From positions 6,328 to 70,327 of the IMG/VR virus record IMGVR_UViG_3300036985_005814: a stretch of DNA of 64,000 bases, one strand, 5' to 3'. The notes beneath the pieces were generated by a model. It saw only the letters and a list, made by a program, of their open reading frames with translations, did not search any database and had not been told where the DNA came from. Numbering within the stretch: position 1 is the stretch's first letter; each line of letters begins with the position of its first letter. This document shows, piece by piece, positions 5,824 through 19,434 of the stretch. Origin of the DNA: a virus. Both the position numbers and the translations under genes were made by a program.

Positions 5824-8800
5824 ATGGCCACTTTTTCTCTAGGCGGTGGTGTAACCCCTGGCGCACCTGGTGTATACATCAATGAGCGCGCCGGTGTTGT
5901 TGCAAACGCTGACATTGCCAATTTTAGCACTGTTTACATGCTGGTGGAAACTCCAGAAACAGTGCCCGTTACAGTATTCCCTTATAACACACCAACTCCG
6001 GTCACTTCGCTCAACGACTACTTCGCCCTTGTTGGCGGAAGCGTTCCCGAAAGTCGGATCCCCCTGCTGAGCTACAACTGCGTCAACGAATTCTTCCAGA
6101 ACGCACAGGTTGGCGACCTTCGCGTTGTTCGCGTTGGCACACCTGACCAAATCGTTGAGATTGAGATTCTTCCCAACGGTACCAAGCAGAGCAATGCTGG
6201 TCTTCCCTCGAACTTCGAGGCTGGAGACGTCGTTTACGCTCAACTCGTGATCAACGGGAATCGCCTTGTAGCAGGTGATGGGTCTACAGGTTACAACGCC
6301 GACGGAGAGTGGCTGGGTGTTCCGGTTACAATTCCCGTAGATTATATCGCCGGCGACGAAGTCAACAACCGTCGAATCTCCTCGGCTATCGCAACTGCAA
6401 TTGCAGAAGCCATCGAGAGCAACCCGAGCGTTCGTAGCGCAGTCTACGTTCGTGACTTCGGTCTTGTGACAACGATTAACCCTCTGTCCAACTCTGAAAA
6501 TGCTTTCGTAAGCATTGCTGCTTCCACATTCGACGCCAACGTAAGCGTTGTTCCGCTGGTCCTGCCTGTTGGCGCCCAGTACGTAATGATGCAGAATGTT
6601 TACAACATTCAGAACATTGTTGGTCAGCAACAGAATCTGGAGAGAGTTCCTCAGGACTACATTCAGTGCATCAACACTGCTTTCGATGGTCAGCAAGATC
6701 AGGGCTACCTGATTACTCCTACTGCATACGCTCAGTTTGATGCTGACGGCCGTGCTGCGATTGGAGCTGCTGCTGCCGAGCATTGCGCTAACAACAACTA
6801 CAAGTGGATGGCACTTGCCGATCCCGGTCCTTTCCTTGTGACCGATGTCAACAAGTATAGCGTATACACTCCTCACCAACCCGCTGCTAACCTGGTTACC
6901 GGCCTCAAGTATCTGGTTGACAATGCCATGTACGAGTGGACCGGTGCCGATGTCACTTACGACAAGCTCACCTACCAAGCTCTGATCGCTTCACCGACTG
7001 CAGAAACTGCCGTTACTCAGTCGAAGACTGCGACTCCGGTTGCTGCTGGGGAGAAAGTTGGTCTTCTGGATTCCGCCTCTTTCGAGGTTGATTCGATCGT
7101 TGGCGACACAATGGTTGTCCTCGACGTCCAGAACTACTGGCCGGTTTCCTACCAGATCCAAGAAGTTACTTTCAGTGGTGCTACGGGAGACATCCTGAGC
7201 ACAATCGGGGAAGACGGAACAATCTTTGTTGTTGCTCCCCCATACGACCTGACAGCGACAGGCGATTACTCCTTCAACAACGTTTTCTTCGCTCTTGACG
7301 CTTCTAGTGCTGTTGCCGTCCTGAACGAAGTCATTGCTGCTGGTGGTTCGATCAACCTGACAACCCCAGTCAATGCTGTGGACTTTGGCGGAAGCGTTGG
7401 AACATGTAACCTCACCTACGTTGTTCCCTTCTACAACCTGCCTCAGACAATTAACGGTCAAACTTCAAACCTTCTGCAGAACATTACTGGAGCTGCCCAG
7501 TATGTGAACACACTGCACCTTCCTGCTAGCATTCAGGAAGCCACCGCTAACTACCGTCTGAATTTCGTATCTCGTACAATCCTGGACCCCGATGCCTCGG
7601 TGGCTGGTTCCACCGGACCCTACACAGGTGCGGCTCAGATTACTTGCGTCGGCCACGGTTTAACAAACGGTCAGAAACTGTACTTCACTCAACCAGTGAA
7701 GACAAACCTTGGTGCAAACCTTTTCCGTGCAACAACCAAGATTTCCGAGGTGCTTTACTACGTTAAAGTGATTGATGCGGACACCTTCAGCCTGGCTGAA
7801 AGCCTGACTGCTTACACCAGTGGTGCCTTCGTAACAATCCCGAGCGGAACATCGTCTCTGGTGTCGAGCCCCACGATCTTCTACACGAAAGTTCTTGGTG
7901 GTGAGGCAACTTCGGCCACCCTGGCGGAACTTTCTGTTGTTCCGTTTATTCGCGGTAGAAAGTACGGCCTGAACAGTGGCCAGATTGCATCGGAAGCTTC
8001 TGTTGCTGATGCTGCCCCGGCACCTGCAACATCCAACCCTGCCGTTTCAATCTTCTTCAACAACAGTCTGACTGCTCTTGGAGTTGGTCTTGTTTCCCCG
8101 TTCGGTGAAAACCCCACCGCCGGTTGGCTGCCTAAGCTTACTCTCACAGCCCCTGGTTCTTCTTCTACAACTCTTGAGAACTGGTACTGTACGCCTACTG
8201 TTGATCAAAACTTCGCGTCCCAGGCTTTCCTGGTTCCTTCGGTTGAACCCATTCTTGGCGGCTCTTACAACCCCACGGGAACATCTACCAAAGGTCCAAT
8301 TTCTACTCTGGGCAGTGTCACTGGCGGAACCGGGTATACTAACGGAACTTACTTAAATGTTGCCCTTACCGGTGGAACAGGCAGTGGTGCTACAGCTGAT
8401 ATCACCGTTGCTGCTGGTATCGTTACTGTTGTTACCCTCACGAACGGAGGTTTTGGTTACACAGCGGCGGATTCCCTGTCTGCTCCTACCTCCGTCATCG
8501 GTAGTGGAACACTATTCGCAGTTCCCGTTGGCGCCATCACGGCCGGGATTGGTATCCTATCCCTTGCAAAACCTTATGCTCAGGCCGCTGGTCTGGTTAA
8601 TGGGTCCGGTAGAGTTGACTTCCAGGGTCAAATTACCAAGTTAACTGGTGTTTACTTCGACGTAATTACAGCTAGTGGTTTTGCCCCTGACGGCACTACT
8701 CCCGTGATCATTGGTGATCGGATTGCTGTTATCTACAACGGAAGCTCCTACTCCTGGGCCGTGGTTCCTGCTGATGGCGATCTTTCCACCGTGGGTCAGC

Positions 8801-12708: not shown

Positions 12709-15108
12709 GTGTTCACTAAAAGAATTCACGTATTTCGTGCGGGTGATCAGACCTCTGCTCAAGGAATTAAGCGGACATTCTCTCCGGAAGATCTTCAGCA
12801 AGTTGTCGACACATACGACCCCTCGGTCCATGAAGCCCCTATAGTTCTTGGCCACCAAGGGGACAACGACAGCTTGCCTTCTTTCGGGTGGATCCAAGGA
12901 TTTTCAAGAGAAGGGCAAAATCTTTACGCTGATGTCTCTTTTACTGACACGGCGAAAGATCTGGTCAAAGACGGTCACTACCGTAAAGTTTCAATCTCTT
13001 TCTATTCCCCTGATAGTCAAATCAACCCGCACGGGGGGAAATGGAGCGCCAGACATCTAGCATTGCTGGGGGCCTCTCCCCCGGCGGTGAAAGGTCTTGA
13101 GCCTTTCTCTTTTGTCGAGAAAGAGGGATGTTTTGACTTTGCTGTTACCCTCACCCCTGACCAAATTTTCGACGACGAACTTGGCCCCACCTTGATCGTT
13201 GAGAAAAGCCCGTTAGAGGTTCTTCGCGAGAAACTTGAAGAAGTACGACAGGATGTTTCATCCGCCGTTAAAGATCTTCAAGAATCGAACGACGAGCAGA
13301 AAGAAACGGGTGTGGACCAAGCGGCTGGAGCCGAAGTCCAGGCCGAAACTGCTAGCCCCGACGAAAACCAACAGTTTGCGGAGGGTTCGAAACAATCCAA
13401 ACGAAACATCAAAACCAACGAAATCACTCAGCAAACGGCTGAACTTGAAGACCAATTCCCAGAGGAACAATTTATGGAAGACGGAAAAATCAGCCGTAAG
13501 CACGCCAAAGGTGCCCACGGCCAAGTAATGCAAGTCGTAGAAAACGTTTACGACGAGCAACACAAAGAGCTGCCTCCAGCTCTGAAAGCTAAAGCGGAAG
13601 AAATGAAGGCCAAAGCCAAGGCTCACCCTGGCGAAAAAGTCGAGATGGAAGAAGGCGACGAAATGGATTATGACGAGACCGGTCGTTATGACACCGCTCG
13701 TTCTTCCGACAACGGTTACGCTGACCGCATGAAAACCGGTAAGGAAGGCAAGGGTGGCGTTGGCGATGATCGCATGCACACTGCTAAAAGCGGTGAGCAG
13801 GAAGCCGATCGCGTTAGCGTTGCCAAAAACTCCGAGCAAGACTCTGATCGCAAGAAGACTGCTAAGGACGGCTCCGATAATGCCACTGGCGAATCTCGCT
13901 GGGCTGGTCAAGCTGATGCCGAAGACCGCACCATGAACGGTGACCAATACGACACAGACGCTGATAGCTACCCTGAACCGAACCAGCCTAAGACTGCCTC
14001 CGGCGCTAATCCCGCTGGTCGTGAAGACTCTGATACCAAGATTCCTACCGAAACTGAGGAATCCCCCGACAATGAAGTATTCGCAGTCAGCACCATCAAC
14101 GTAATGTCTGATGGCAGCATGCGCGTAATGCGTCAAAAGAGCAGCGACGGTCGTCAAGCTACCAAGGGTGGCAAGATTGACCACGCCGAGCCCGAAGCAG
14201 ACGAAGTAACTTCTGAGCTGGGCGTAACTGCCATGGGCGAAGTTGACGATCTGACTCAAGGCAAAGCCAAGATCAAGAAGGGTCAACTGGAGCCTGGTCA
14301 GTTTGAAGGCGGAGTTGCCGAAGTAACTGGCCCCGATGGTGTGTTCGCCGAGGGTTACAAGGGAGAGAAGAAAGCTTCTAAGAAGCAACTTACTCCTGGT
14401 GCGATGGATGAGATTGACGAGGCCGCCCAAGTTGTTGGTCCCGAAGGCGCATTCGCCGAGGACAATCTGAGCGGTGAGTTTGAAGGTGGTCCGAACCAGA
14501 AGACTAAGCGTTCCGGCGGTGTGTTCGCTGAAGAGCACGGTGAGAAGAAGAACCCTTACACCAAGACTGGGTTCGGTTCCACCTACGACGAAGATGGCGA
14601 CGACGCCGACGAAGAAGATTACAACGAGCTTTCCGCTGACCATTGCGGAATGGATTACGGCATGGGTTCAATGGCCCAAGCTAAGCCAGATGGTTTCCCC
14701 TCCGCCATCTTCGAGGAGCTGGATCGCCTGAAGAAAGAGCACTCTGAACTGCAGCGTCGTTACGCTGAAGAGAAGATGAACGCCCGCAAGGCCAAGATTG
14801 CCTCATTCGTTGAGTCGCTCTACGAAGAAGGTCGTCTGACCGACGGTATCATGTCTCAGTCTGAGCTGCAAAGCTACTGCGAAGGTCTTGACTTCGGTAC
14901 TCTGGAGTTCTCTGAAGGTGAAACTGCTGCCACCAAACTGCTTGGTCTGCTGAGCAAACTTCCTCCGATGGTTTCCTACAGCGAAATCGCTGGTGGAACT
15001 TTCCAATACGCCGAGGAAGATCTGGATCCCCACGCAAAAGCTCTGAAACTGGTTGAATCCGAAGGAATCGACTACGTTGAAGCGATCAAGCGTACGATGT
15101 ACAGCTGA
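12709..15108 (+). CDS. prohead protease-scaffold fusion (Mu gpI-like)
   Basis: EAPIVLGH, GWI, YRKVSISFY, HLALLGASPPAVKGL; long acidic scaffold region. Confidence 0.85.
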   Translation: MFTKRIHVFRAGDQTSAQGIKRTFSPEDLQQVVDTYDPSVHEAPIVLGHQGDNDSLPSFGWIQGFSREGQNLYADVSFTDTAKDLVKDGHYRKVSISFYSPDSQINPHGGKWSARHLALLGASPPAVKGLEPFSFVEKEGCFDFAVTLTPDQIFDDELGPTLIVEKSPLEVLREKLEEVRQDVSSAVKDLQESNDEQKETGVDQAAGAEVQAETASPDENQQFAEGSKQSKRNIKTNEITQQTAELEDQFPEEQFMEDGKISRKHAKGAHGQVMQVVENVYDEQHKELPPALKAKAEEMKAKAKAHPGEKVEMEEGDEMDYDETGRYDTARSSDNGYADRMKTGKEGKGGVGDDRMHTAKSGEQEADRVSVAKNSEQDSDRKKTAKDGSDNATGESRWAGQADAEDRTMNGDQYDTDADSYPEPNQPKTASGANPAGREDSDTKIPTETEESPDNEVFAVSTINVMSDGSMRVMRQKSSDGRQATKGGKIDHAEPEADEVTSELGVTAMGEVDDLTQGKAKIKKGQLEPGQFEGGVAEVTGPDGVFAEGYKGEKKASKKQLTPGAMDEIDEAAQVVGPEGAFAEDNLSGEFEGGPNQKTKRSGGVFAEEHGEKKNPYTKTGFGSTYDEDGDDADEEDYNELSADHCGMDYGMGSMAQAKPDGFPSAIFEELDRLKKEHSELQRRYAEEKMNARKAKIASFVESLYEEGRLTDGIMSQSELQSYCEGLDFGTLEFSEGETAATKLLGLLSKLPPMVSYSEIAGGTFQYAEEDLDPHAKALKLVESEGIDYVEAIKRTMYS

Positions 15109-15856: not shown

Positions 15857-16336
15857 ATGGCTACAAACGCAGGTCCCGTATACGGCCGCCAGTACATCCG
15901 TTACGCAGAAACTTTCGAAGCTCCTGCTGACAATCAAGATGGCGATCCCGGTGTTGTTGAAATCGGCGAGTTCCGCGCCGTTTCTTACGCAACTTGGGCT
16001 GGCCCTAACTTCGCTGCTGCCCCCGATGCTTTCACTACCCCCGGTAGTGTAACAACCATCGTTGGTATCAACCAGGCTTACATGCCTACCGCTCTGGCTC
16101 AGCCTTACACCGCTCGTCAGCTGACCGTTGCTACTTCCGGTCTTCTGCTGGTTGAAGTTGCCCCTGCTGCAACTCTGACCGCTCTGACCCTCAATACTCA
16201 GCTCGAGATCAACTCCCTTGGTCAAGCTGTTGCCGCCGCCGACGGAACCCCCGTCACCCTGGACGGCACCACACCTCTGATTCGCGAGCAAATCGGAATC
16301 GGCGGTCGCAAGTTCGTTCTCGTTTCTTTCGCTTGA
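15857..16336 (+). CDS. capsid cement/decoration protein (DUF2190-like)
   Basis: Small beta-rich protein (LTVATSGLLLVE...GQAV) directly upstream of the major capsid gene. Confidence 0.6.
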   Translation: MATNAGPVYGRQYIRYAETFEAPADNQDGDPGVVEIGEFRAVSYATWAGPNFAAAPDAFTTPGSVTTIVGINQAYMPTALAQPYTARQLTVATSGLLLVEVAPAATLTALTLNTQLEINSLGQAVAAADGTPVTLDGTTPLIREQIGIGGRKFVLVSFA

Positions 16337-16346
16337 TAACTAACTT

Positions 16347-16380
16347 CAGTTGGGCATCCTCCGGGTGTAAGTCCCAACTG
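16347..16380 (+). other. intergenic RNA hairpin upstream of the capsid gene
   Basis: CAGTTGGG...CCCAACTG 8-bp stem enclosing CATCC-TCCG-GGTG. Confidence 0.5.
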
Positions 16381-16428
16381 TGGTTTAACCATTTGAAGTC
16401 GTTTAATCCCCATTAGGAGAATACTCCC

Positions 16429-18371
16429 ATGATGAATCGAGTTGGTTCCCACCGGAAGTGATTCCGGATGGAAAATCGGGTGAATTGCTGGGACCCCCTA
16501 ACGTTTAGTCGAGGGAAATCAGCAGCCAAGTTTACTTCGGGTAACCTATTGTATAATAGGTTTGAAGTAAAAAGGTTCAACGACTAGAAAGTGACTTACC
16601 CAAGAATAAACTTTCCACGAGTGCCCGACGCTCGGATCGATCACTACTTCAATCGTTATCTTCGTATCTGTTGCTCTCTTCTTGACATTGGTCGAAAGAA
16701 GCGAAAAGGTGATTTCCTTGAGAAACACCGAATCTTTCCGGGGTCCCTCGGTGGAGACTATGGTGAGGAGAATGTTGTGATAGTTACACGAAGAGAGCAT
16801 GCTCTTCTTCATTTGTTACTTCACAAATCTTTCCCAGAACACAGGAAAATAGCGCAATGTGCCGCTATCATGTGTGGTTCAAAAGGCTCAAAAACCTACA
16901 AATCGCTTGCTTACATCCAGGGCTGTGAGGAAAAATCTAAACTCATAGCCGAGTCGAACAAAAGAAGGAAAGTCACCTGGGGTGACAAGATCTCTCAATC
17001 TTTGAAAGGTCAAGAGAAAACAGAAACTCATCGAGACAAGATCGGTAGATCTATGCGTAAGGTTTGGGAAACCGACCCTTCAATGAGAGACCGGTGTTCT
17101 CGAAAAGGTTCCAAACACACTGACGAGTCAAAACAAAAAACAAGTGAAAAAATCTCTCGTCAAAAATGGTACTGGAAGATAGAAGATGAAGTCGTGATTA
17201 GAACTCGGTCGGAAAAACACCCTGGGGATGGGTGGAGCCGAGGAAAAAATCCGAGATGATGATATAGTCTGACCTCACGCGAAATCGTGAGAAGTGGTGA
17301 ATAAAGAGTCATCACGATAACAAAGTGCTCCAGCAAACCTATGCTGGCGTAGATCCGATTCTGACTACGCTCGCACAAGGTTTCATGCTTCCGGCGACTA
17401 ATATCGCCAACTTTATTGCCCCTGTTGTTGACACCCCGACTCGTGCTGGCCGCATTCTGCGCTTCGGCAAAGAGCAATTCGCCATCAACGATTTCCGTCG
17501 TGCGTACGGAACCAACATTCCGTTCGTTCAAAGCCGTTACGATGCTGAGCCTTACGCGCTCGAGCAAGAAGTCGTGGCTTGGGAACTGCCCGAAGAAGTC
17601 ATCGAGAACGCTGGCGAAGGTCCTGCTCAGGTTGATCTGCGTGCGATCGAAACTCGCAACGCTATGAGCCGCCTGATGAATGCTTACGAGTACACTGTAA
17701 GCCAGGCTGTAACCGTAACCGCTGGTTACAACCCTTACGAGCCTTCTGCTGGTGCTGGCACTCAAACAGGTCTGGGTTTCACAACCTGGGCTAACTTCAA
17801 CACCGCCTACGGTTCTGCTACTGGCCCTTCGGCTTGGTCTTCACTGACTTCCAACCCGATCGAGGACATCCTGACCCTGAAGCGTTCGGTTGCCAACCAG
17901 ATTGGTATTCGCCCGAACTCGATGGTTCTGGGAACCGCTGTGTTTGACCAACTGCTGACCAACCAAGCGATCCTTGAGCGCATCAAGTACACGACTGCCG
18001 ATTCAATCGACACAGATCTTCTGGCTCGTTACTTCGGTCTTGAGCGTGGTCTGCGCGTTGCTGAAGGTCGTTATCTTGCCACCGATGGCACCCTGCAGCC
18101 TGTGTTCCCTTCAAACGGAATCCTGCTGTTCTACAGCCCCAATGGTCCTTCAGACAGCGTAATGCCTGCTGGTGGCGCTAACGCTGCTACCCCTGCTTTC
18201 GCCTACACCTATCAGCTGACCGGCACCCCTGCTGTGCGCCCCGAGTACTACATTCGTGAGCGTCGCGTGGTTCGTGCTGAAATCACTGTTGAGCGTGTTG
18301 TTAACCTGGTTGGCCTTGGCGCTACGGGTCTTATCGGTTCTGGTGCGATGATCTCCAACATTCTTGGTTGA
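16429..18371 (+). CDS. major capsid protein, spliced: join(16429..16437,17328..18371), 350 aa
   Basis: SD AGGAGA then ATG ATG AAT; splicing gives MMNLQQTYAGVDPILTTLAQG...; sequence resembles capsid proteins of Mu-related head modules and the gene position fits. Confidence 0.85.
16438..17327 (+). ncRNA. group I self-splicing intron
   Basis: P GAATTGCTGGGA, Q AATCAGCAGCCAAG, R GGTTCAACGACTAG, S GATATAGTCT; P7 GACTA/TAGTC; P1 GAAU/GUUC with U-G at the 5' splice site; terminal G at 17327. Confidence 0.92.
16591..17259 (+). CDS. intron-encoded HNH homing endonuclease
   Basis: EKHRIFPGSLGG...NVVIVTRREHALLH plus NUMOD3-like repeats (KHTDESKQK); lies between intron elements R and S. Confidence 0.88.
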   Translation: MTYPRINFPRVPDARIDHYFNRYLRICCSLLDIGRKKRKGDFLEKHRIFPGSLGGDYGEENVVIVTRREHALLHLLLHKSFPEHRKIAQCAAIMCGSKGSKTYKSLAYIQGCEEKSKLIAESNKRRKVTWGDKISQSLKGQEKTETHRDKIGRSMRKVWETDPSMRDRCSRKGSKHTDESKQKTSEKISRQKWYWKIEDEVVIRTRSEKHPGDGWSRGKNPR

Positions 18372-18399: not shown

Positions 18400-18843
18400 A
18401 TGGCTATTTTAAGACCGATTACCAAATCGCAGTACGAGGTTTCTTTCTCCGCCCTTGGGGGACCCACTTTTACAGCGGTGTTCACCAAGTTCAGCGGCGT
18501 GAAAGATTCTGCCGAAGACAGCCGGTACGCGAACGGATCTGGCAACAGACTGTACCACGTTATTGGCCCACGCACTGCGGATGACGTGACTTTGGAAGCC
18601 CCGTACGATCCCGCCATCTTCAAACAACTGGAACAGTTCTGGCTTTCCTACAACTGCGAAGACATTACGGTTACCGTAACCCCTAAAGACTGCACCGGTG
18701 CCGGTGGAGCAGTGGGTGGTGGCCAATACGTTCTTTACGGTTGCCAGTACAAGTCAATCACAACCGCTGATGTAGATCGCGAAAGCGGAAACGTACAGAC
18801 GATCGAGTGTGCGTTCACGGTGAACTACTGGGAGCGTGTTTGA
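18400..18843 (+). CDS. tail tube protein
   Basis: 147 aa, SD AGGAGG; FTKFSG...DVTLEAPYDP...DVDRESGNVQTIECAFTV tube-like pattern. Confidence 0.7.
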   Translation: MAILRPITKSQYEVSFSALGGPTFTAVFTKFSGVKDSAEDSRYANGSGNRLYHVIGPRTADDVTLEAPYDPAIFKQLEQFWLSYNCEDITVTVTPKDCTGAGGAVGGGQYVLYGCQYKSITTADVDRESGNVQTIECAFTVNYWERV

Positions 18844-18912: not shown

Positions 18913-19434
18913 ATGTTTACCGTTGAGCACATTGACCCTCAAAAGGGAGTTTTGGTTTCGGGTCTCGACATTGAGCTCAATGTCATTATCGCAGACGAAA
19001 GTTACAACAAACGTAAAACAAATAGGTTTGTCCCCTATCGAATAAAAGACCATCCCGCCCCTGTGAACTTTGGTGAGATGGGCGAGTTTTTGATAGGGGG
19101 TGAATGGGTGGTTTGCGAGTTTGGTGGGACAGAGTGGTGGGACGAGAGTACAAAAATAGGGTGCTCTCAAACCTCCTCTCGCCGAAACTTTGCAGCCACT
19201 CGGGTGTTTTTTGACGGTGAGCGTTGGGACAAACAAACACGTCAAAAAATGAGTGAGAGTGCCAAAAAACCCGGAGCCCAACCGCCACACAAAAAAGCCG
19301 CTCAGTCTCAGGCCGTATCCGCAACCAACGCCAAAAAACAACCATGCCCCCATTGTGGCATGCTCATGAATGTTGGCAACCTTACAAAACATCTTAAAGG
19401 TACTCGCTGCAAAGGTACACCGCAAGTAGGGTAA
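18913..19434 (+). CDS. free-standing HNH endonuclease-like protein
   Basis: VEHIDP...VSGL...N...YNKRKTN; C-terminal CPHCG...H...C finger. Confidence 0.7.
   Translation: MFTVEHIDPQKGVLVSGLDIELNVIIADESYNKRKTNRFVPYRIKDHPAPVNFGEMGEFLIGGEWVVCEFGGTEWWDESTKIGCSQTSSRRNFAATRVFFDGERWDKQTRQKMSESAKKPGAQPPHKKAAQSQAVSATNAKKQPCPHCGMLMNVGNLTKHLKGTRCKGTPQVG

Follow-up and report, generated by a model that had tools for sequence, protein, structure and literature searches.

A putative mobile group I intron three codons into the major capsid gene of a freshwater phage

Where does the major capsid protein begin in a phage whose capsid gene opens, according to automated annotation, at a GTG? The question is raised by a 64,000-nucleotide (nt) stretch of viral DNA, here called the window, that covers positions 6,328 to 70,327 of the 70,327-base IMG/VR record IMGVR_UViG_3300036985_005814, a linear metagenomic contig with an estimated completeness of 32. 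The list of open reading frames (ORFs) starts the capsid gene at GTG 17325 and gives a product of 348 amino acids (aa). The original prediction, made from the letters of the window, had placed a group I intron after codon 3 of this gene and had warned that annotation programs would start the capsid at GTG 17325, as they indeed do; the codon is a trap because its last G is the terminal G of the intron. We conclude, with a probability of roughly 0.9, that a mobile group I intron encoding an endonuclease occupies 16438–17327 and parts codons 3 and 4 of the major capsid gene, and that it splices and spreads in the manner proposed below. Comparison with related sequences establishes the structure of the ribozyme, its exact boundaries, the polymorphism for its presence or absence, a linked 5' flank and purifying selection on its ORF. 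The coordinates are collected in Table 1.

The boundaries were read from relatives that do not carry the insertion. In IMG/VR, 312 relatives of the capsid protein were confirmed by tblastn, and the best 80 of these 312 were used for occupancy counts. At 76 of the 80 loci the gene is uninterrupted and reads ATGATGAA(C/T)|CT..., and the same intron is present at 4. Codon 3 is AAC at 74 of the intron-less loci and AAT at 2; it is also AAT in Synechococcus phage S-CBWM1, whose annotated major head gene begins ATGATGAAT-CTC (MMNL...) with no intron. Beyond this codon the intron-less genes continue with CT(C/G/T), then CA(G/A) or TCG, then CA(A/G) AC..., for a product M-M-N-L-Q/S-Q-T-Y, and 41 of the 76 carry synonymous CTGCAACAA variants. 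The window has ATGATGAAT (16429–16437), then 890 nt, then CTCCAGCAA from 17328. Because the intron-less alleles show the exon sequence to be continuous, both splice sites are fixed to a single base, and these alleles together with the rules for group I introns (U before the 5' splice site and a terminal G) leave 16438–17327 as the sole consistent solution. The in-frame joining of ATGATGAAT to CTCCAGCAA that had been predicted is thereby supported by 76 of 80 alleles, and the search for intron-less alleles in related phages that had been proposed as a check finds them at these loci and in S-CBWM1.

The inserted sequence is recognized as a group I ribozyme. Rfam family RF00028 matches 16375–17291 on the plus strand with 61.0 bits against a gathering score of 50 (E = 5e-13), over model positions 1–253 of 253, and is the sole Rfam family match in the 64-kb window. 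An intron search of the whole 70,327-base record gave two partial matches only, both within the 16438–17327 intron. A covariance-model search had been suggested as a check, and this score, taken with the intron-less alleles, bears out the proposed intron after codon 3. The complete P/Q/R/S core that had been described is likewise found in the Rfam alignment as AAUUGCUGGGA, AAUCAGCAGCC, GUUCAACGACUA (16575–16586) and GAUAUAGUC (17261–17269); the sequences of P4, P6, P7 and J8/7 are conserved, and a large insertion lies in the P8 loop. Rfam's own placement of P1 (16379–16402) is poor and wrong, and the true 5' end was taken from the comparative data.

Helices were derived with RNAalifold from eight homologous copies of the intron at this position (site 1) in diverged lineages, with the 5' halves and the 3' parts folded separately. 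For the 5' half the program returned, unprompted, P1, P2 with a GNRA loop, P3, P4, P5, P6 with its extensions, and one hairpin located after P7 and before the 3' strand of P3; 25 of the 54 predicted pairs show compensatory changes among the eight copies, both sides being altered and the pair kept. The 3' part has such changes in 8 of 18 predicted pairs, all within P9 and P9.1 (8 of their 14 pairs), and its other helix, of four pairs, is probably an artefact of folding the molecule in two pieces. Compensatory changes are thus present in P2, P3, P5, P6, P7.1, P9 and P9.1. P7 is invariant among the copies, and P8 covaries by eye, with CUCGGAU/AUCCGAG in the window, CUUUGC/GCAAAG in L181 and CCCGAUC/GAUCGGG in L170 (L-numbers are labels of related IMG/VR contigs). 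P1 does not vary, so that covariation is uninformative for or against it. In the consensus fold the one covarying hairpin that follows P7 and precedes the 3' strand of P3 occupies alignment columns 175–206; this P7.1 hairpin may be akin to those of subgroup IA introns, and extra P7.1/P7.2 helices at this place are described as a criterion for subgroup IA2-like introns (PMC3428280). The remaining structural elements that had been picked out by eye, namely the U.G pair of P1, a GNRA-capped P2, P9 hairpins and a terminal G, were all located.

These results bear directly on a different explanation, in which the insertion is a free-standing homing endonuclease cassette, or the remnant of a decayed intron, that lies between a 3-codon stub and a re-started capsid gene and has no working ribozyme. 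Free-standing HNH genes are indeed reported to be common in phage structural modules (PMC3706429), and the window holds a second HNH-like ORF at 18913–19434. A cassette or remnant would, however, hardly match all 253 positions of the Rfam model above the gathering score or keep compensatory changes in the seven helices just listed, and copies of 266 nt that lack the ORF are found at exactly the same site; because they are ORF-less yet identically placed, such copies are sensible only as ribozymes. We therefore regard this explanation as extremely unlikely, and return to the group I intron.

The P8 loop of the intron is filled by an ORF of 222 aa that starts with a GTG inside P7.1 and ends in J8/7, 68 nt before the end of the intron. 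Its length is 222 aa in six of six copies, and it starts at the identical place in each, with GTG in four and ATG in two; L181 and L170 have the ORF-less 266-nt version. The ratio of nonsynonymous to synonymous divergence (dN/dS) is 0.09–0.15 in the seven pairs with an estimable dS (from the window, L002, L142, L150 and L188), which argues that the endonuclease ORF is maintained by selection; the near-identical pair L101/L188 gives 0.26. The 222-aa product is a candidate for an active endonuclease. Because both ends of the ORF overlap ribozyme helices, ribozyme folding and endonuclease translation should be mutually exclusive, by analogy with other phage introns (PMC3428280).

Close copies of the intron occupy the same site in L002, L006, L007 and L016, all among the best 80 loci, and in L142 and L150; diverged copies occupy it in L101, L181, L188 and L170. 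The recurrence disposes of the suspicion that a chimeric assembly had joined an intron into the capsid gene: the window does derive from a linear, incomplete metagenomic contig, but the same arrangement is present in six other IMG/VR contigs from different samples, and an assembly artefact is effectively refuted. Comparison of the intron-plus L002 with the intron-less L003 indicates instead how a mobile intron may have arrived. Downstream of the site the two differ at 1 of 1100 bases, a distance that spans the whole capsid gene, whereas upstream there are 29 differences in 700 bases, 17 of the 29 being at positions −37 to −15 and −1. The 23-nt intron-type flank AGGAGAATACTCCCATGATGAAT occurs in 5 IMG/VR contigs, 5 of 5 intron-plus, and at 0 of the 76 intron-less loci. 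Overall, the intron is found on at least four capsid backgrounds, and intron-plus alleles on four different ones share the flank ...TTAGGAGAATACTCCC ATGATGAAT. The window and L002 are identical at −25 to −1 and different from −26 outward, as expected for independent recombination end-points. Between the same two sequences the proportion of synonymous differences (pS) in the endonuclease ORF is 0.58, far above the divergence of about 5% (55 of 1100) in the capsid gene, and this contrast, with the several capsid backgrounds, points to independent histories of intron and capsid gene.

The linked flank and the presence/absence polymorphism together read as the signature of homing with one-sided co-conversion. 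The Shine-Dalgarno (SD) sequence and the T at −1, which is needed for the U.G pair, are kept in every intron-plus copy and travel with the intron. At the DNA level, the 222-aa endonuclease would cut or nick intron-less capsid alleles during mixed infections, and repair would copy the intron along with about 15–37 nt of the donor 5' flank, including the SD variant and the −1 T that the U.G pair requires. The original prediction went too far in stating that the homing site must extend into the 5' untranslated region (UTR): a flank of about 37 nt including the SD co-travels, which is not the same as recognition of the UTR by the endonuclease. Characterised HNH intron endonucleases can recognise short, asymmetric sites, of 14 bp in the case of I-PfoP3I (PMC3428280).

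Related phages carry more introns in this gene. In a sister lineage (L101:286-4263; also L181, L188, L130 and L151) the corresponding capsid gene is crowded with introns. Six RF00028 matches, all above the Rfam cut-off, lie within 4 kb in L101 and separate exons of 9, 27, 39, 18, 225, 577 and about 158 nt; a T stands before every intron and a G is the last base of each, and the computed spliced frame is open for 351 codons. Occupancy varies by site among relatives. L192 is without the site-1 intron; in it codons 12 and 25 are each followed by an intron and more introns lie downstream, one of them near codon 119; L170:2648-3857 combines an ORF-less site-1 intron with a second, ORF-bearing intron near codon 25–26. 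The fourth intron of L101 (L101:1736-1760) follows an exon ending in GCGAAT and begins with CGATAGG, and site 1 of L170 shares the last four exon bases (GAAT) and the first seven intron bases, a match that may mark the move of an intron to a second site with a matching P1. An 18-nt motif of the 3' core (J8/7–P7) is present in at least 119 IMG/VR viral contigs (L084–L202), upstream of many different exon sequences, and is followed by a P9 hairpin and by a P9.1 hairpin with a GAUAAAGAGC-like loop. The introns with this motif constitute a widespread phage intron subfamily.

How could a gene interrupted after 9 nt be expressed? The SD had been predicted to belong to the first exon, and an AGGAG is indeed found there (Table 1). 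In the mechanism that we propose, exon 1 of the late transcript would supply the SD, the AUG and three codons, and the ribozyme would then fold. In P1, GAAU from exon 1 would pair with the intron's GGUUC, guanosine would attack after U16437, and the sequence that follows the 3' splice site after G17327 would be joined to exon 1 to give AUG AUG AAU CUC CAG .... In unspliced RNA the frame of exon 1 reads MMNRVGSHRK* and stops after 10 codons at a UGA (16459–16461) in the GUGA loop of P2. Ribosomes that initiate on unspliced RNA would thus sweep P1 and P2 and halt in the P2 loop, and the catalytic core would be left untranslated because of this stop. Splicing would have to occur between rounds of initiation. 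Because the SD and the AUG lie in exon 1, only spliced RNA would yield the full-length MMNLQQ... product, and only spliced RNA would link the ribosome-binding site to the capsid reading frame.

The 5' splice site is 9 nt from the A of the AUG. A ribosome footprint of the usual size would cover P1 during initiation, and the initiating ribosome would therefore be expected to sit on both the 5' splice site and P1. It is plausible that ribosome loading competes with P1 folding, which would match what is described for the introns of phage T4 (PMC3984707). In that account, the ribosome is both chaperone and competitor of group I folding in T4 and bacterial introns, and in-frame stops just inside other group I introns are viewed as helping folding (PMC3984707). 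As to the SD itself, it is predicted to lie in a small GGAG/CUCC hairpin in both unspliced and spliced RNA, with probabilities of being unpaired of 0.15 and 0.08. Pairing of the SD GGAG with a CUCC just before the AUG is kept in intron-type 5' UTRs (folded) and in intron-less ones (by eye), with loops that differ. The idea that splicing unmasks the SD is without support, the SD being predicted to be equally paired before and after splicing.

An alternative route to the capsid protein would make splicing unnecessary: the intron might splice poorly or not at all, and the capsid would be translated from unspliced RNA at GTG 17325, two residues shorter. The GTG opens an in-frame ORF of 348 aa, every copy at site 1 has GTG or TTG as its last codon, in frame with exon 2, and P9 of the window has one mismatched pair. 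Against initiation at the GTG, the bases upstream of it, GATAACAAA, include no SD-like sequence, and a terminal ...TG is common across the intron subfamily whatever the downstream gene, so that it is not a conserved start signal. Moreover, the core helices are all intact and covarying, and no intron-plus copy has lost exon 1 with its SD and the T for the U.G pair. Translation from the GTG is in our view very unlikely, and a spliced capsid messenger is preferred.

RNA sequences from lakes touch on the junction. Twenty-four sequencing runs were listed, none with more than 0.15 of the sampled words, and contigs of 4 of the 24 (X3, X5, X6 and X7, from four studies) were placed on the region. In X6, a 343-nt contig of depth 8.5, placed at 17333–17475 with 13 mismatches in 143 nt (a 91%-identical variant), has an intron-type-like 5' UTR and ATGATGAAT joined directly to CTCTC.... 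Its combination of UTR and exon is absent from all 80 DNA loci, and intron-less DNA alleles with AAT-CTCTCG exist (L048, L081); the contig may derive from the spliced RNA of a relative or from an intron-less allele that has escaped sampling. A second X6 contig (151 nt, depth 3.8) covers 16566–16664 only and diverges on both sides; a lack of coverage across the intron is uninformative.

Several observations count against a functional, mobile ribozyme at this site. In all 4 of the 4 lake metatranscriptome sets a contig passes from 16406 to 17328 with the stretch in between replaced by 30 letters that end in ATGATGAAC; these contigs have an intron-less-type 5' UTR and AAC, and hence come from intron-less relatives and provide no evidence of splicing. 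P1 is short, with four exon base pairs (GAAU) and one intron pair. P10 has at most 3 bp (GAG 16439–16441 with CUC 17328–17330) and shows no covariation, and the pair that closes the P9 loop is a C.U mismatch in the window, against G-C in relatives. The covariation counts rest on 8 copies from about 5 distinct lineages. As for the intron ORF, it has no Pfam HNH match (only NUMOD3, E 0.85), no NCBIfam model and no PDB sequence, and its HNH assignment rests on PHROGs and on a by-eye H...N...H motif (EKH...EEN...REH). A separate candidate, covariation of P10 between GAG/CUC in the window and AAG/CUU in L101, was withdrawn, as the true exon 2 of L101 begins with CUA.

Group I introns in capsid genes have been published before, in mycobacteriophage LittleE (PMC3706429) and in crAss-like phages (PMC7886860); the LittleE paper also cites a capsid intron of lactococcal phage Tuc2009 (PMC3706429), and terminase and other late genes carry group I introns as well (PMC8541194; PMC7344957; PMC12880540). 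Given these introns in print, the premise of the original prediction that structural-gene introns are exceptional among phages is dated; a position this near the start codon is unusual. A limited word search of the literature turned up no published case of a group I intron placed among the first few codons of a phage gene and no paper on capsid introns in the S-CBWM1 lineage. For S-CBWM1 itself, a group I intron in psbA is reported, with an endonuclease ORF of 633 bp (PMC8557907).

The LittleE intron (Pope et al. 2013, PMC3706429) resembles the present one in being an insertion of about 820 nt with an endonuclease ORF in the gene for the major capsid subunit, with a U before the 5' splice site, a terminal G and a site defined by intron-less relatives. 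Its splicing was confirmed by RT-PCR and N-terminal protein sequencing, whereas splicing here is predicted. Unlike the present insertion, 9 nt past the start codon, it lies well inside the gene, close to the delta-domain cleavage site. Its ORF is LAGLIDADG-like and runs on the opposite strand, in contrast to an HNH-like ORF on the same strand here, and its type was left uncertain by the authors (PMC3706429), whereas the ribozyme here scores above the Rfam cut-off. Among the Delta and Zeta groups of crAss-like phages (Yutin et al. 2021, PMC7886860), metagenomic genomes also have intron-split capsid genes, one of them in five fragments, to which the intron-rich L101, L181 and L188 are similar. 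Those phages belong to another order and to the human gut, and their introns were recognised via protein domains; the available text of that study reports no start-codon position (PMC7886860).

Other parallels concern the ribozyme and its relation to translation. The T4 td, nrdB and nrdD introns share with this one an early in-frame stop after the 5' splice site and an endonuclease ORF in a peripheral loop, and ribosomes on their upstream exons influence folding (PMC3984707). Their upstream exons are long, however, and the ribosome arrives by elongation, whereas here the initiating ribosome would itself cover the 5' splice site and P1. The DNA polymerase intron of the freshwater cyanophage Pf-WMP3, of subgroup IA2, has P7.1/P7.2 and encodes the HNH nicking endonuclease I-PfoP3I; as in the window, the endonuclease ORF extends into core helices, a U.G pair marks the 5' splice site, the last base is a G and P10 is short (PMC3428280). 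It differs in having a replication gene as its host and in its mid-gene insertion (Pro363/Asn364) (PMC3428280). The nearest functional analogue at a translation start is the c-di-GMP-dependent ribozyme of Clostridium difficile, which also lies in a translation initiation region and in which splicing decides the placement of a ribosome-binding site for the ORF (PMC3984707). That ribozyme is allosteric, non-mobile and wholly within the UTR (PMC3984707), whereas here the start codon is in exon 1 and nothing suggests a ligand-sensing domain.

Upstream of the intron, the ORF at 12709–15108 has a head-maturation-protease N-terminus, continues with a long stretch that is acidic and of low complexity, and ends in a coiled C-terminus; it looks like a protease–scaffold fusion. 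Two small ORFs separate it from the capsid region. The 173-aa plus-strand ORF at 18913–19434, between the tail-tube-like gene and the next gene, has by eye an HNH-like N-terminus (EHIDP...N...N) and a C-terminal CxxC. It is without a match in Pfam, PHROGs or NCBIfam and may be a free-standing homing endonuclease. A TTTGAAG motif about 30–45 nt upstream of the capsid start codon (16390–16400 in the window; L003–L081) is kept across otherwise divergent 5' UTRs and could be a late promoter or a processing signal; a promoter and terminator scan of 16100–17500 gave nothing useful upstream of the capsid gene and no sigma-70 match at this motif. The closest isolate to the capsid gene is S-CBWM1, at 67.7% nucleotide identity over the gene. 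This relative and the lake-water origin of the sequencing runs with related sequence suggest that the source is a freshwater phage related to S-CBWM1 with a cyanobacterial host.

Table 1. Positions in the window of the intron, its parts, the capsid exons and adjacent genes.
Feature	Position	Strand	Basis
Head maturation protease/scaffold gene, 799 aa	12709–15108	+	phrog_976, 6.1e-68, residues 3–317
Putative co-converted 5' flank (5' UTR with SD, and exon 1)	16401–16437	+	L002/L003 comparison; flank linkage
SD of capsid gene, AGGAG	16415–16419	+	Read from sequence; 9 nt before ATG 16429
Exon 1 of major capsid gene, ATG ATG AAT (M M N) = ATGATGAAT	16429–16437	+	Intron-less relatives; S-CBWM1 head protein
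P1 hairpin: G16434-C16448, A-U, A-U, U16437.G16445 (5' splice site), C16438-G16444	16434–16448	+	RNAalifold, five pairs kept in 8/8
Group I intron, 890 nt, terminal G at 17327	16438–17327	+	Rfam RF00028; boundaries from intron-less alleles; covariation
P2, GNRA loop GUGA 16458–16461	16449–16471	+	Compensatory changes in 6/8 P2 pairs
5' half of core: P3 (16476–16482 with 16622–16628), P4–P6 and extensions, P7 5' strand (in 16580–16587), P7.1, P8 5' strand (16631–16637)	16476–16637	+	Rfam alignment, consensus fold
Intron ORF, 222 aa, predicted homing endonuclease (HNH-like)	16591–17259	+	phrog_655 homing endonuclease, 1.6e-18; phrog_12434 HNH endonuclease, 5.3e-06
3' half of core: P8 3' strand (17248–17254), J8/7, P7 3' strand (in 17261–17269), P9, P9.1, G17327	17248–17327	+	Rfam alignment, covariation
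P9: 17274–17280 with 17285–17291	17274–17291	+	RNAalifold
P9.1: 17294–17300 with 17309–17315	17294–17315	+	RNAalifold
Exon 2 of major capsid gene, through stop codon	17328–18371	+	phrog_1005 major head protein, 5.7e-51; Pfam Phage_cap_E, 1.3e-08
Tail-tube-like gene	18400–18843		ORF list and profile searches

A bolder reading would tie these observations together. The ribozyme would part the start region of the capsid gene from its frame, so that capsid synthesis would be gated by self-splicing dependent on guanosine triphosphate (GTP), in kinetic competition with an initiating ribosome whose footprint lies on the 5' splice site and P1. The intron would move with its own variant of the ribosome-binding site, tuned to that competition, and in this phage lineage the 5' end of the capsid gene would be a hot spot for up to six introns, with micro-exons of 9, 27, 39 and 18 nt. 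As a whole we consider this speculative and on balance doubtful; were it true, the locus would offer a natural system for the coexistence of translation initiation and ribozyme folding. Apart from that reading, the start-site position, the co-converted ribosome-binding site and the intron-rich relatives make for a good experimental system rather than a new principle.

For annotation the consequence is immediate. Gene callers start the capsid at GTG 17325 and miss exon 1, and they shatter the capsid genes of the six-intron relatives; the error will recur because the capsid family is common in lake viromes, with 312 relatives in IMG/VR. For the biology of these phages, the main reading implies that the late protein needed in the greatest amount would depend on a ribozyme within the footprint of the initiating ribosome, which would take the known tension between translation and group I folding to its extreme (PMC3984707). 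For their evolution, near-identical intron-plus and intron-less genomes that differ by a sharply bounded, one-sided tract including the SD suggest homing captured in wild phage populations, and the pairs are ready-made substrates for mapping the endonuclease.

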